DNA of 64,000 nt from Escherichia phage SHEFM2K (PQ390715.1), one strand, 5' to 3'. Numbered from the stretch's first letter, positions 2,701-63,939 are shown. Numbers and translations: made by a program. Notes: generated by a model not told the origin, from the letters alone.

Positions 2701-3853
2701 ATGCTACCCTTTGGAAGAATTATCACATCATCAAAAAAGAACATACAACCTTCTGTTACAAAAATAGCTTCATCTGATACAACAGTTTTTGCCCTTATGT
2801 CAGATGGTACGTTGTACAGTAGAGGCTCTCAAGAGTTTGGGCAAATGGGTATAGGTAATATTATAACACAAACCAAATGGGTTTTGTGCAATACAAACGT
2901 AGAAGATCTATGGGTTCGGGTATGAGTCAACATTAATTAAAAAGAAAGATAATACGATGTGGTATGCTGGAAATGGTGCATCATTCGGTTTATCAACTGA
3001 TAAGTCAACAACGTGGGCTTCTGCAAAGATAGTGTTTGATAGAATAACAGCACTTGGAAAAACAATAAAACAAATTGCAGTTAGTGCAGGTGCATTAAGC
3101 GTATTATGTACAGACAACACGATATGGAATACGGGTTATGGTAGTTATGGACAACTGGGAAATGGTAGAAGTACCGATTCACTTTCATCATTTGTACAAG
3201 GAACATTACCTACTGGAGTAACACCATCCAAAATACTGGCAAATTTTCTTATGCAAGGATTTATTGGAACCGATGGGAGATTGTATTATACTGGTGCAAT
3301 ATCAGGCGTAGGTACAACCGACATGACGTTATATTCAAAGTACACGTTATGTTCTCAAATAACTAATACCTATACAGTAAAAGATTATACAACAAACTCA
3401 AGTTACTTTGCTTTTGCTATAGCAAATAATAATAGTACTAATAAATTATTTGCATATCATGGTGGTGGTCAATACTTTGGTCAGTTAGCAAATGGTTCTA
3501 CATCACAAACATATATTTCGTTAAGACAAACAACACAAGCACCAGGTGATATAATAAGAAGCAGTGTAGGTTATTCATATTTTTCTAATCATATTATAAC
3601 TTCATTGGGTGTTTACGCAACTGGTAATAACACAGGCGATAACGCAGGTCAATTGGGTATAGGTACACAAACAGATGTGTCGGCCTATACCAAATGTGTA
3701 CTACCAATAGAGATGAATATGAATAACGTATATGTTACAGCAACTTTATACAGAACTTACTTAACCGATGGTATACAAATTTACAGTACTGGACAATATA
3801 TTACAGACGGTGGAGTTGCCAGTACTGTATTTGTCAAAGATTCACCATTTTAG
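2701..3853 (+). CDS. RCC1-like repeat protein, paralog 3; needs +1 frameshift at G-run 2912-2914 (frame A 2701..2913, frame B 2915..3853)
   Basis: RBS GGAGGA; N-terminus MLPFGRIITS; frame A stops at 2923-2925, +1 frame open from 2903 and aligns residue-for-residue with paralog 2 (..DLW|FGYESTLIKKKDNTMWYAG..). Confidence 0.55.
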
Positions 3854-4496
3854 GAATATTGTACAAAGTGTATGCGGTTATTTTAGAACTCTTTTTAAAT
3901 TCATCGTAAAGATAATTCAAAATTTTGGAACATTCAATATACTTTTCAATATCTTTATGGATTAATGAGTACTGAAACATTAAATCAGATGATATATTGT
4001 AGGTACTACCTTTTAAACTGTTTAAAATATCACAGATTTCAGGGTTTACGGGTACTTCGTCAAAATTATCATCTAAAACATTTATTTCAAAATCAAAGCC
4101 ATCTTTGTTTTTGATTAATTTGATAATAGAATCACCATAAACATTATATTGTTTTAATGGATTTACTACAATGTTAAAAAGATTGGATGTATTACAATCA
4201 ATATCCATAAAGTATGTATTATCATTGTACTTAATATTGAAACATCCGTACTCAATAAAATCACCAGGAGTTATTGATGAGTTTCTTCTCGTTTCAACAT
4301 AAGAAGCTTTAATTTTGTTTTTATTTAAAAGAGTAATAAATTTCTTAGACTGTTTAGCACCAGCTAAGTAAGTATTATAACTTGGTCTTTTAAAAATTAT
4401 AGGACTAGACTTCTCACCAGAGAAATATTTTTTTATAAATTTACGCTGTTTAACGAAATAATTTTTATAAAACAAACCTAATTTTGTTTTCATCAT
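3834..4496 (-). CDS. hypothetical protein (weak match to FQxS motif family: ..SDLMFQYSLIH..)
   Basis: 220-aa ORF; AAGGAG RBS; converges on plus-strand paralog 3. Confidence 0.55.
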   Translation of the reverse strand: MMKTKLGLFYKNYFVKQRKFIKKYFSGEKSSPIIFKRPSYNTYLAGAKQSKKFITLLNKNKIKASYVETRRNSSITPGDFIEYGCFNIKYNDNTYFMDIDCNTSNLFNIVVNPLKQYNVYGDSIIKLIKNKDGFDFEINVLDDNFDEVPVNPEICDILNSLKGSTYNISSDLMFQYSLIHKDIEKYIECSKILNYLYDEFKKSSKITAYTLYNIPKMVNL

Positions 4497-4537
4497 AACT
4501 CCTTATTAATCCAGTACTATCAAGTACTGGAATTTTA

Positions 4538-4909
4538 TTATGACATACGCTTATTATGAATGGAATTATGAATGGATTTTAAATAATTATATAATTTTAT
4601 CAATCCACTACCAGTAGCTACAAACAATAGTGCTGTTGGTATCATACATCCAAACATGGTTATTAATTCATGTATTTCCATACCATCACTATTTGGTCCC
4701 ACATCAAATATAACAACCAAAACAACACCTAAAATGCTTAGACAATAATATCCCATAAAGACCATAAAAGTGATATATCCGGCACTTGATTTAATATTAC
4801 ATAACATATTATACACTGGATTAATACAGAAGAAGTATAATAACCATACCAGTGTTCCAGTACTGAACATAATAATTGAAATAATGGAAAATATCTCACG
4901 GTAACTCAT
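4538..4909 (-). CDS. small membrane protein
   Basis: 123-aa ORF with hydrophobic TM-like segments. Confidence 0.55.
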   Translation of the reverse strand: MSYREIFSIISIIMFSTGTLVWLLYFFCINPVYNMLCNIKSSAGYITFMVFMGYYCLSILGVVLVVIFDVGPNSDGMEIHELITMFGCMIPTALLFVATGSGLIKLYNYLKSIHNSIHNKRMS

Positions 4910-4910
4910 A

Positions 4911-5273
4911 TTATTTCCTCATACCCAAACGTTGGTGGATTTCAGAGATCTTTATATATAATAGTACCACAAGGTGCAGTACTAAACAACATATAATTAC
5001 GGCTAATACCAATGAACATATCATAAGACCGAAGGTTATTGTATTCAAAGAGGATGTGAACAGTCCAATTATTAATACAATAAAACCAAAATTGAATACT
5101 GTACCCAACACAGTATATGCTGGACTATATCTCTTTTGGATTACATCATATATATTTGATAATGGTCGCTTATGGAAGTACTTCCCAATGCACACGAATG
5201 CATTCAGTGAGAAGATAAATGTATACGCCATTACTAGTAATTGACCAACGAAAGATAATTCTATCCCATTCAT
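4911..5273 (-). CDS. small membrane protein
   Basis: ORF track 4911..5336; start moved to internal Met abutting upstream gene; hydrophobic. Confidence 0.5.
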   Translation of the reverse strand: MNGIELSFVGQLLVMAYTFIFSLNAFVCIGKYFHKRPLSNIYDVIQKRYSPAYTVLGTVFNFGFIVLIIGLFTSSLNTITFGLMICSLVLAVIICCLVLHLVVLLYIKISEIHQRLGMRK

Positions 5274-5274
5274 A

Positions 5275-62168: not shown

Positions 62169-62236
62169 TCCAGTACATGTCCATTTTAACAGTACTGTTA
62201 TCAGATGGTGTTAGTAAAGTATCGATGTCATATGTA

Positions 62237-62515
62237 TCAAAGATTTTGTCGTTCATATAATCTCCTAATAAAATATTCTCGATTCTCTCTTATATACCCA
62301 GATACACAGTTAGTTGTGGCTTGGTTAGTGAATGAAATCTCACTATTGGACACGCCATTTGCATCACACAAAGGACATATTCCCATGTACTTGGGGGTCG
62401 GGTAGGTGTCCAATTTGTATTTTTCATTACACACCATGTACTGCTGTGGCAATACATCTAATATTATTTCATATTCTTCATCAAACACCTTGAAGCATAC
62501 CCAACATTTACCCAT
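62237..62515 (-). CDS. zinc-ribbon protein
   Basis: CWVC ... CPLC. Confidence 0.5.
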   Translation of the reverse strand: MGKCWVCFKVFDEEYEIILDVLPQQYMVCNEKYKLDTYPTPKYMGICPLCDANGVSNSEISFTNQATTNCVSGYIRENREYFIRRLYERQNL

Positions 62516-62999
62516 TATAGTTTTCCTTTAACACCGTTCTTATATATTCGAATGTTTTAACAAACCAATCATGTTCGTCGGATACATCTACAACTTTACC
62601 ACCATATACATAGTAATGGTAAAAAGGTAACTTGCTTTTTCTTAATCTTTCGGCTAACTCTGGATTTTGAATTATCTTAGCACAAATAGCATCTTGAATA
62701 ATAGAAATACAATCATCCGTCATTTCAATTCGATCATGCATATATTTGTTAGCGGCTGCTTTTGCTGCTGCACCAGATACTTTTCTAAGGTCATCATGTT
62801 TTTGCCCAGTTAAAAACCAAAAGTAAAATGTTTCAACTGAAGGGAACCAACCATATGGTTCAAGTGTGAAGCTATGCGAAGAAAAGTTAGATAGATCTCT
62901 ACCTAACTTAGTTCTAGCTTTACTATAAATGTTAATGTGTCGGTATCCATCATCAGTAGGGTCAATAAAGTCAAATGACTCTTCTGGGAACTCAAACAT
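62508..62999 (-). CDS. YbiA/NADAR-like (DUF1768) domain protein
   Basis: ..LSNFSSHSF..YGWFPSVETFYFWFLTGQK..RKVSGAAAKAAANKY.. parallels E. coli YbiA blocks (FSNF.., EHYFQAQKF, ..RRVSSPMVAARMGR..) as recalled. Confidence 0.5.
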   Translation of the reverse strand: MFEFPEESFDFIDPTDDGYRHINIYSKARTKLGRDLSNFSSHSFTLEPYGWFPSVETFYFWFLTGQKHDDLRKVSGAAAKAAANKYMHDRIEMTDDCISIIQDAICAKIIQNPELAERLRKSKLPFYHYYVYGGKVVDVSDEHDWFVKTFEYIRTVLKENYNG

Positions 63000-63001
63000 A
63001 A

Positions 63002-63355
63002 TTATTCTTCTTCTCCTGAAGGAGTTCCACGTAGTTTGTCAAAATCAACCCAAATACCATGCTGATTTTTAAATCTACATTTCTCATAGTACCAGCTATA
63101 GTCAGTTTCAACACCTTGTGATATAGATCTAACACTACAATCATACATATTATATAAATGATCCCTGACAATATACGTATTAATCAGAATAACAAACAAT
63201 ACAATAATACCACAGACTTTAGGATGATCCATAATCAAATCTAGAACGGAACTCGTTTCAGTACTGTCAATTTTACTACGACCGATGGCAACAGCTTTCA
63301 GTACTGCTAATGATACCAGTAATGAAATAACAAGAACACTCAAATAAATTAGCAT
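63002..63355 (-). CDS. membrane protein
   Basis: 117-aa hydrophobic ORF. Confidence 0.55.
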   Translation of the reverse strand: MLIYLSVLVISLLVSLAVLKAVAIGRSKIDSTETSSVLDLIMDHPKVCGIIVLFVILINTYIVRDHLYNMYDCSVRSISQGVETDYSWYYEKCRFKNQHGIWVDFDKLRGTPSGEEE

Positions 63356-63357
63356 AA

Positions 63358-63939
63358 TTAGACTCCTACACCAAAACGTAAAAGGATGTTATTAACAAAC
63401 ACAAAATCAAATGGAGACTTTGGTTCAGATACCGAGTACTGAAAAGTTTCAGCGGAGAAACTTTCCCTATTGTGCCATGTTGATGAATCGATTAGTAATT
63501 GTTTATCACCAATTGACGTTGAATGTAATGGAACGTGTGCTGATGAATTTATGGAATACGCATTTAGTTTTCCTTGTTCATCTAATGTGATACTAAGATA
63601 ATATTTTTTCTCAATATCAGGAATAAGTTCTTTTGTATACGAATAGATTGAATCAACCCATTCATCATGTACATTTTCTGCACCAATCAGGTGTCCGAAT
63701 GATAAATTACGTTTAACTGGCTTTGATCCTGGTCGAGTTAGAATGAATTGTTTTGTTAAGTAAAAATTATTATGTTTTACTTCAATATTAACATTTTTAA
63801 AATTCACCACTTTATCATATACATTTCGAAAAACTGTTATATCCCAAGTACTAATTTCATCCATAATACTTATCACCAGTTCTTCTAGTTCTTGTATAAA
63901 TGGCAAATCATCTTGATGAAATCTAGTCATGGTTTTCAT
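63358..63939 (-). CDS. hypothetical protein (weak FQxS-like motif ..SAETFQYSVSEP..)
   Basis: 193-aa ORF. Confidence 0.55.
   Translation of the reverse strand: MKTMTRFHQDDLPFIQELEELVISIMDEISTWDITVFRNVYDKVVNFKNVNIEVKHNNFYLTKQFILTRPGSKPVKRNLSFGHLIGAENVHDEWVDSIYSYTKELIPDIEKKYYLSITLDEQGKLNAYSINSSAHVPLHSTSIGDKQLLIDSSTWHNRESFSAETFQYSVSEPKSPFDFVFVNNILLRFGVGV

Follow-up and report, generated by a model that had tools for sequence, protein, structure and literature searches.

A 64,000-nucleotide stretch of Escherichia phage SHEFM2K (PQ390715.1), referred to here in its entirety as the window, carries 21 members of a family of small proteins that share one predicted alpha/beta domain and a conserved block near the C terminus, [ST]EExFFQxS[TL][IV]xD. 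The complete genome OR844650.1 encodes about 69 such proteins. Our reading, to which we assign a probability of roughly 0.5, is that they form a large, ancient, and lineage-specific family of small, acidic, soluble, non-virion proteins that act as binding modules in early interactions with the host. The descriptive part of this reading is well supported, namely membership, copy number, taxonomic restriction, the fold model, absence from the virion, purifying selection, and ancient orthology. As far as we could find, neither the family nor its signature, fold model, or scale has been described, while lineage-specific expansion as a phenomenon is known.

To define the family, we seeded a profile hidden Markov model (HMM) with the 14 minus-strand open reading frames (ORFs) that contain FQxS[LTMIV][IVL] and iterated it over all 262 ORFs of the window. 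The pattern occurred in a mean of 0.16 and a maximum of 3 ORFs across 1,000 per-protein shuffles. The iteration converged on 20 members, the six beyond the seed having a degenerate motif (Q to M, or S to C, N, or L). Leave-one-out profiles, each built from the other 19 members, recovered all 20 (E = 4e-12 to 6e-3 against the 262 ORFs), always ahead of the best nonmember. The ORF at 47428-47832 (SVEEEFQYNLL) is a 21st member, which an HMM built only from an array outside the window detects at E = 1.3e-4 and which joins the genome-wide iteration described below. A preliminary description of this DNA, made from the sequence alone, had proposed an expanded family of about 23 paralogs. The expansion is confirmed, and the five example ORFs that it quoted are present on the minus strand at the positions given. 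Its clusters at 39.9-42.7, 47.4-49.0, 53.4-55.2, and 57.2-60.9 kb and its outliers at 3.8, 19.7, 25.3, and 44.7 kb are likewise correct. The count itself stands at 20 by HMM plus the 21st. The ORFs at 48586-48978 (DSEEDEFQKNT) and 63358-63939 (AETFQYSV) contain motif-like strings resembling those of degenerate members and would bring the total to about 23, but they have no significant support from any profile. The individual ORFs are given below with their leave-one-out E values unless stated otherwise; "array E" refers to the HMM built from the out-of-window array.

3834-4496, minus: member, 220 aa, basic N-terminal extension, motif SSDLMFQYSLIHK; E = 5.8e-3 (the weakest), array E = 2.6e-4
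19711-20283, minus: member, 190 aa, basic N-terminal extension, NDEEYFQESIVTE; E = 1.6e-3, array E = 5.4e-5
25320-25838, minus: member, 172 aa, STEENVFQQSLIHN; E = 8.4e-5, array E = 1.2e-6
39944-40405, minus: member, 153 aa, M instead of Q, TEEEHFMDSTVKE; E = 6.5e-6
40353-40781, minus: member, 142 aa, DSEMFFQLSTVYD, first AlphaFold model (AF2 pLDDT 74); E = 9.7e-10; no coding sequence (CDS) in the phAPEC6 annotation
40771-41190, minus: member, 139 aa, degenerate motif TEEMYLQLNFVHD; E = 2.6e-6
41910-42275, minus: member, 121 aa, TEESLFQYSMIND, best AlphaFold model (AF2 pLDDT 86.9, pTM 0.80); E = 3.7e-12
42268-42693, minus: member, 141 aa, TEEKFFQYCLLND; E = 7e-8
44744-45097, minus: member, 117 aa, TEEEYFQMSTVQE, inside the tRNA cluster; E = 4.6e-7; 11/12 sigma70-like promoter directly upstream (45156-45129)
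47428-47832, minus: divergent 21st member, 134 aa, SVEEEFQYNLLYPD; array E = 1.3e-4; recurrent best "nonmember" in leave-one-out; equals g35529_35933 in OR844650.1
47829-48377, minus: member, 182 aa, TEEERFMLSTINP, basic C-terminal tail; E = 3.1e-5
48586-48978, minus: 130 aa, DSEEDEFQKNTT, may be a degenerate member but lacks significance; lowest E = 0.006, from a single leave-one-out profile
53358-53801, minus: member, 147 aa, LEEMYFQQLTIQE; E = 2.6e-5; reciprocal best match RaK2 L005_12573, 28% over 155 aa
54181-54636, minus: member, 151 aa, NDEYVFQQSTVHD; E = 2.9e-6
54633-55148, minus: member, 171 aa, SEEEFFQRSTIID, long helical C-terminal extension; E = 1.2e-9
57191-57631, minus: member, 146 aa, TEESLFQLSTVID; E = 2.3e-8
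57625-58080, minus: member, 151 aa, TEEGFFQQSLIRE; E = 9.6e-11; RaK2 reciprocal best match
58077-58454, minus: member, 125 aa, SEEELFQLSLIEK; E = 1.2e-5
58456-58860, minus: member, 134 aa, TEESFFMASTIND; E = 3.4e-10; RaK2 reciprocal best match, 30% over 141 aa
58862-59272, minus: member, 136 aa, TSESLFQRSLVDD; E = 5.7e-9; RaK2 reciprocal best match; 11/12 sigma70-like promoter at 59331-59303
59328-59723, minus: member, 131 aa, NDEYHFQQSTIEE; E = 1.8e-7
60489-60917, minus: member, 142 aa, DEDVFFQQSLVYD; E = 1.2e-6; best-conserved RaK2 ortholog, reciprocal best, 47.6% over 145 aa
63358-63939, minus: motif-like string only (AETFQYSVSE), not supported as a member; no HMM match at E < 1

Conservation of the block acts at the peptide level, as had been proposed. 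Among window members, the invariant Ser is encoded by both AGT and TCN, Phe by TTT or TTC, and Gln by CAA or CAG, and DNA identity within the block averages 54% pairwise. Since the codons differ, selection is on the peptide, and a conserved DNA element as the cause of the motif was rejected. Published annotations under-call the family, because the members at 40353-40781 and 53358-53801 have intact ORFs and no annotated CDS in phAPEC6 (MK817115.1; equivalents of window positions 40202-40613 and 53358-53801).

We extended the search to the complete genome OR844650.1 (351,992 bp), which is 99.7% identical to the window over 57-61 kb, the 4-kb stretch tested. Among its 962 ORFs of at least 50 aa each, the first family profile matched 64 at E <= 0.01 and the iterated profile matched 69 at E <= 1e-3. 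Reversed ORFs gave one match with the first profile and none with the final profile at the same thresholds, and shuffled ORFs gave none. The two sets of genes also find each other: an HMM from the 20 window members alone detected 33 genes at 250-300 kb, and an HMM from the distant array alone detected 18 window ORFs. The preliminary description was thus right that the family is real and understated its extent, since the window holds only a third of it and about 48 more copies lie outside. The largest array consists of 41 genes at 265-295 kb (OR844650.1 265,641-294,906), and smaller groups lie at 198.8-213 kb and 252.5-253.8 kb; these genes share the strand of the window members. Motifs in the out-of-window array include SEEYYFQQSTVYD, followed by a different C-terminal helix (…VLD.LVIMWYFK). 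Together, the 69 genes occupy 31.9 kb, or 9.1% of the genome, on one strand only, and encode mostly acidic proteins of 103 to 220 aa (median length, 150 aa; median isoelectric point, 4.82). The most similar paralogs are five consecutive genes at 281.5-283.9 kb, where the closest pair is 58% identical.

Pairwise comparison conceals most of this relatedness. Paralogs are about 20% identical overall, and BLASTP at 1e-4 connects only five window members, which accounts for the few paralogs reported in genome papers and for the scatter of the family in PHROGs, where members are spread over about 25-26 groups, all of "unknown function." The RaK2 paper noted about 10% of gene products as paralogs (PMC3622015), and the CBB paper listed 22 paralogous ORFs (PMC5259590). 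We found no description of the family in the literature on RaK2, CBB, phAPEC6, Sharanji, and UE-S1 or in Iyer et al., including by searches with motif strings.

The family is also absent from domain collections, in agreement with the preliminary description, which did not recognize a named domain. Scans of the 20 members returned only scattered single matches in Pfam to eight unrelated families (E of at least 0.002), one match in NCBIfam (E = 0.059), and none in PADLOC, and a profile search of PDB sequences found no match. The fold likewise has no PDB match to known sponges, enzymes, or known inhibitors of defense, and matches in BFVD are uncharacterized proteins of the same clade only. Two other candidates were rejected. 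The beta sliding-clamp motif QL[SD]LF occurs in none of the 69 members, and the family consensus Q-x-S-[TL]-[VI] lies within a predicted helix; ADP-ribosyltransferase R-S-E motifs were set aside by reasoning, since the order of the motifs does not fit and the domain falls short of the size required.

We next assessed the taxonomic distribution of the family. At 57-61 kb, the window is 99.7% identical to the Asteriusvirus jumbo coliphages 121Q, PBECO4, phAPEC6, and G17 (348-373 kb). A word-indexed protein search returned close orthologs only, so that the figures for breadth come from an exhaustive profile search of 1.84 billion cluster representatives, which matched 164 clusters (50% identity) at E <= 1e-3. 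All but one of these are 62-215 aa long, and TEEEYFQQS[TL][IV]xD, with G.[TS].E[DE] after it, is present in almost every one. The named sources are Salmonella phages Munch, 7t3, and SE_PL, and the others are contigs of about 350-360 kb; Erwinia phage Hallingskeid has one member. A hand-made degenerate DNA pattern of the motif found 13 loci in IMG/VR, 12 of them on contigs of 345-378 kb (121Q, RaK2, CBB-sized, and others) and one on a 109-kb contig, and the family profile identified 51 members within these loci, in tandem arrays. A 38-aa consensus used as a tblastn query matched 73 of 50,697 phage records. The matches listed are phages of 310-386 kb, except for a few incomplete records and two chance-level Bacillus matches (E = 7), and their host genera, which belong to the Enterobacterales except for Xanthomonas, are Escherichia, Klebsiella, Salmonella, Erwinia, Yersinia, Cronobacter, Pectobacterium, Serratia, and Xanthomonas. 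From the profile, DNA-pattern, and tblastn searches, the family is restricted to the RaK2-like jumbo phage clade and is a hallmark of it.

The expansion is old. The array of Klebsiella phage RaK2 (L005) contains reciprocal-best orthologs of the window array at 53-61 kb in the same order, with 28-48% identity, indicating that the expansion predates the split of these genera. Phage TH47 (about 87% identical) has a syntenic ortholog for every window member from 39.9 kb on. Comparison of this set (17 of the 20 members plus three divergent candidates) yielded a median amino acid identity of 77.6% for family genes versus 84.5% for neighboring genes. The median ratio of nonsynonymous to synonymous substitution rates (dN/dS) was 0.24 versus 0.15 (Mann-Whitney p = 0.012). 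The highest family value is 0.995 (44744-45097), and none exceeds 1. Each paralog is therefore retained under purifying selection and evolves somewhat faster than its neighbors. These values argue at most weakly for the "diversifying" family of the preliminary description or for rapid diversification, and the order of paralogs is kept as far as RaK2. A recent gene "accordion" was rejected in view of the purifying selection and ancient orthology.

We modeled the structure of two members with AlphaFold2 (AF2). With a 144-sequence alignment as input, the model of 41910-42275 reached a mean predicted local distance difference test score (pLDDT) of 86.9 and a predicted template modeling score (pTM) of 0.80. 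It places a helix at residues 4-15, strands within 26-79, a helix at 87-96 that coincides with the motif (EESLFQYSMI), and a last helix at 104-119, and its confidence peaks (85-94) over the motif and the last helix. The model of 40353-40781, which is shallower (pLDDT 74), has the same topology with the motif at helix 105-114. In these models, the family is one shared alpha/beta domain with an N-terminal helix, a 5-7-stranded antiparallel meander sheet, and two C-terminal helices. HMM alignments cover the full protein length, and the whole domain of about 120 aa is homologous across members as judged from these alignments and the single predicted fold. The preliminary description had envisaged divergent N-terminal regions joined to a shared C-terminal block, a view that these results replace.

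In the models, the block [ST]EExFFQxS[TL][IV]xD provides both the N-cap and the body of alpha2, the penultimate helix, and G.T.E[DE] opens the last helix. In an alignment of 158 sequences, its residues are E in 146, E in 146, F in 156, Q in 145 (M in 13), and S in 149, and the position four residues after the invariant Ser is D, E, or N in 154. The low-information columns within the block fall at every fourth position, as expected for one exposed stripe of a helix. Outside the motif, only beta-strand-like hydrophobic patterns are conserved, along with an Asp/Asn position in the sheet (column 261; D in 83 and N in 40 of 150). Judging by residue type, the two helices seem to be N-capped by the T/S that precedes E-E and by the [TS]-x-E-[DE] that follows the turn; T or S ahead of acidic residues fits ordinary helix N-capping. 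The aromatic and aliphatic residues of the motif would pack on the sheet, and the near-invariant E-E...Q.S...D would form a constant polar edge. As the motif helix lies in the best-ordered part of the model and varies at every fourth residue, it appears to be a central helix of the fold and not the linear motif that had been suggested.

The genomic context is consistent with an early role. The window has a G+C content of 33% and almost all of its genes on the minus strand, and its counterpart in phAPEC6 (gp006-gp141c) consists nearly entirely of hypothetical proteins. The annotated exceptions there include an RpoD-like sigma factor, a T7 gp0.7-like kinase, endonuclease V, a UvrC-like protein, and a DNA methyltransferase. 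Amid short hypothetical ORFs of the window lie the sigma factor (30458-31423), the kinase (15159-15833), and endonuclease V (DenV; 10368-10802), all on the minus strand, which fits an early host takeover region. In phage CBB, a region of short hypothetical ORFs contains the sigma factor of the phage and has RpoD-like promoters, and its authors suspect that it is early and serves host takeover (PMC5259590). In two scanned stretches of the window, all nine sigma70-like matches of 11-12/12 are on the coding strand, several of them in gaps just upstream of members; overall, matches were no more numerous than in shuffled sequences. The family arrays presumably lie in an early, host takeover region, and the early-gene character given in the preliminary description looks correct. 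Strong GC-rich hairpins with T-runs (terminator-like, 8-13-bp stems) are found in gaps between family genes at 60454-60482, 59768-59750, and 41237-41213, suggesting that the arrays are split into several short transcription units.

Early timing, a binding-module role, and a shared partner are what we infer from these observations. Each paralog would be a stand-alone cytoplasmic binding module, expressed early from sigma70-type promoters that host RNA polymerase recognizes. The helical hairpin, constant throughout the family, would hold the structure together as a keystone and might also dock a single partner common to all, and the highly variable sheet and loops would direct each paralog to a different host target, for takeover or counter-defense.

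An alternative that we regard as possible, if unlikely on balance, is that the motif is a mere folding keystone. The proteins would then have no shared partner or activity and would be a generic scaffold for unrelated functions or partly dispensable cargo. The well-ordered motif helix with its periodic variability, the ordinary capping residues, and the conservation of little more than strand-like hydrophobic patterns elsewhere all agree with such a role. It accounts less well for the polar residues of the block, E, E, Q, and S (145-149 of 158) and D/E/N (154), which are near-invariant among proteins about 20% identical and exceed the usual demand of capping. Moreover, conservation among the three acidic residues is lowest at N3 (E in 77 of 158), the position at which a capping box would be expected.

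A more ambitious version of the binding-module reading is doubtful in our estimation. It holds that this is the largest paralogous family yet seen in any phage, with a fold not seen before and with gene-for-gene conservation among RaK2-like genera, and that its members are combinatorial adaptors in which the E-E/F-Q/S helix docks on one hub and the sheet recruits targets. The hub would be either a phage factor or host machinery (RNA polymerase or a protease, for example), to which the variable sheet would bring a host or defense target.

Improbable, in turn, is a role as acidic oligomers of the p32/MAM33 type or as nucleic acid mimics that would sequester basic host proteins with affinity for DNA or RNA, for instance nucleoid proteins, restriction enzymes, and defense nucleases. 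We give a still smaller chance to the polar cluster (E-E, Q, S, and D plus the sheet Asp/Asn) being a small-molecule or metal site, which would make the proteins very small enzymes or ligand "sponges." Phages are known to encode small sponge proteins that capture immune signals, and both the polar or acidic nature of the invariant residues and the conserved sheet D/N (column 261) would suit a site of this sort. However, about 69 paralogs per genome are hard to square with a single ligand, the PDB folds of known sponges and enzymes are unmatched, and the PADLOC and Pfam scans were negative.

Very unlikely, too, is the reading of the preliminary description, a cleavage site of the tobacco etch virus (TEV) type (E-x-x-Y-F-Q|S) or a short linear motif for targeting or degradation. 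The likeness to the TEV NIa site ENLYFQ|S/G is superficial and consists of the E...Y-F-Q string, with E at P6 (146 of 158), Y/F at P3, F at P2, and Q at P1 (145 of 158). In the family, however, the invariant Ser occupies P2', and residues at P1' vary (Q, L, Y, and others), so that only 1 of the 69 members fits the strict pattern E..Y.Q[GS], versus 2 of the 893 other ORFs. The block also sits within a confidently predicted helix (pLDDT 85-94) that is part of the fold, and a cut would free just a 24-41-aa tail in most members. No TEV-like protease was detected among the 962 ORFs by phmmer with TEV protease as the query (best E = 1.2), a search that has little power for remote homologs.

Least credible of all are packaged internal, inner-body, or scaffold proteins whose motif is read or cut by a prohead protease (the T4-type L/I-x-E| fits "L-T-E|E"), for while about a third of members have L/I two residues ahead of the first E, phiKZ has a paralogous inner-body family (PMC12676376), and phAPEC6 has an inner body (PMC7247149), the genes lie in early-type arrays outside the structural module and none of the 62 virion proteins of phAPEC6 detected by mass spectrometry (MS) is a family ortholog. 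The orthologs sought in the MS table were gp011c, 039c, 054c, 083c, 084c, 087c, 088c, 093c, 103c, 120c, 121c, 127c-132c, and 134c, and nothing from gp348-gp548, the interval estimated by coordinates to hold the second array, was detected either, which argues against packaged or prohead-processed proteins. The phiKZ PF12699 family (gp92-97, 153, 162, and 163) resembles ours in being multicopy jumbo phage paralogs with a conserved C-terminal region, but its proteins are virion components cut by the head protease, and none of the 20 window members matches PF12699 (phiKZ head/inner-body) or has any significant Pfam match.

Multigene families are also known from large eukaryotic DNA viruses. MGF360/505 of African swine fever virus (ASFV) and ANK/PRANC of poxviruses comprise dozens of divergent paralogs in terminal or early regions. 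The poxvirus proteins combine a constant C-terminal element with a variable target-binding part, by analogy the same arrangement that we propose here; our family belongs to a bacterial virus and has no sequence or fold kinship with them. Among phages, Iyer et al. termed a zinc-ribbon family of about 35 copies in Bacillus phage G "unprecedented" (PMC7824862). Both families consist of one small domain in dozens of copies in one jumbo genome, with a function that is at best conjectural. The present family differs in its alpha/beta fold without zinc ligands, its phage clade, and its copy number, which is about twice as high (69), and its paralogs, about 20% identical, are shared across genera as collinear orthologs.

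Several other features of the window are worth recording. Six tRNA genes (42710-46794, minus strand; Thr-TGT, Asn-GTT, Met-CAT, Ser-ACT, Ser-TGA, and Gly-TCC) are interleaved with family genes. The Ser tRNA to which ARAGORN assigns the anticodon ACT stands out as unusual, and AGT is the commonest codon of the family's invariant Ser. Around the tRNA genes lies a mini-family of five ORFs of about 54-60 aa (45167-47256), linked by BLAST at E < 1e-4:

45167-45331, minus: mini-family ORF
45328-45492, minus: mini-family ORF
46297-46479, minus: mini-family ORF
46822-46998, minus: mini-family ORF
47077-47256, minus: mini-family ORF

The only sizeable plus-strand blocks are 62-3853 and 36220-37374. The first holds four paralogous ORFs corresponding to the RCC1-repeat "DNA condensation" proteins gp006-gp010 of phAPEC6, detected in virions by MS, and the second corresponds to gp077, likewise part of the virion. 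The DNA cytosine methyltransferase ORF at 55673-56533 (minus) encodes 286 aa, and its best TH47 match has 629 aa (L024 23195-25084), a length difference that suggests an insertion or fusion in TH47; HNH endonucleases are annotated near this gene in related genomes. At 8225-9879 (minus), ORFs of 474 and 77 aa correspond to one 629-aa "exonuclease ABC C subunit" in phAPEC6 (gp019c), a difference that could reflect a split gene, a frameshift, or an insertion. Head-to-tail runs of equal-sized ORFs of about 105-140 aa at 5275-7318, 13710-14399, and 14688-16289 (minus) may represent further cryptic families; the only pairs detectable by BLAST are 6639-6977 with 6977-7318, 13710-14051 with 14061-14399, and 14688-15101 with 15870-16289.

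About one gene in eight (~12%) of these 350-kb phages belongs to a single family that, as far as we could find, neither databases nor papers recognize. Their genomes are largely annotated as "hypothetical," and part of this dark matter, the arrays of short ORFs, amounts to variations on one fold. With one HMM, hundreds of proteins could be re-annotated in all RaK2-like phages, several of them under development for therapy. Five near-invariant residues and two large arrays provide an experimental handle. If a shared hub and a variable surface are indeed combined in these proteins, the family would be a phage counterpart to the multigene host range families of large eukaryotic viruses.

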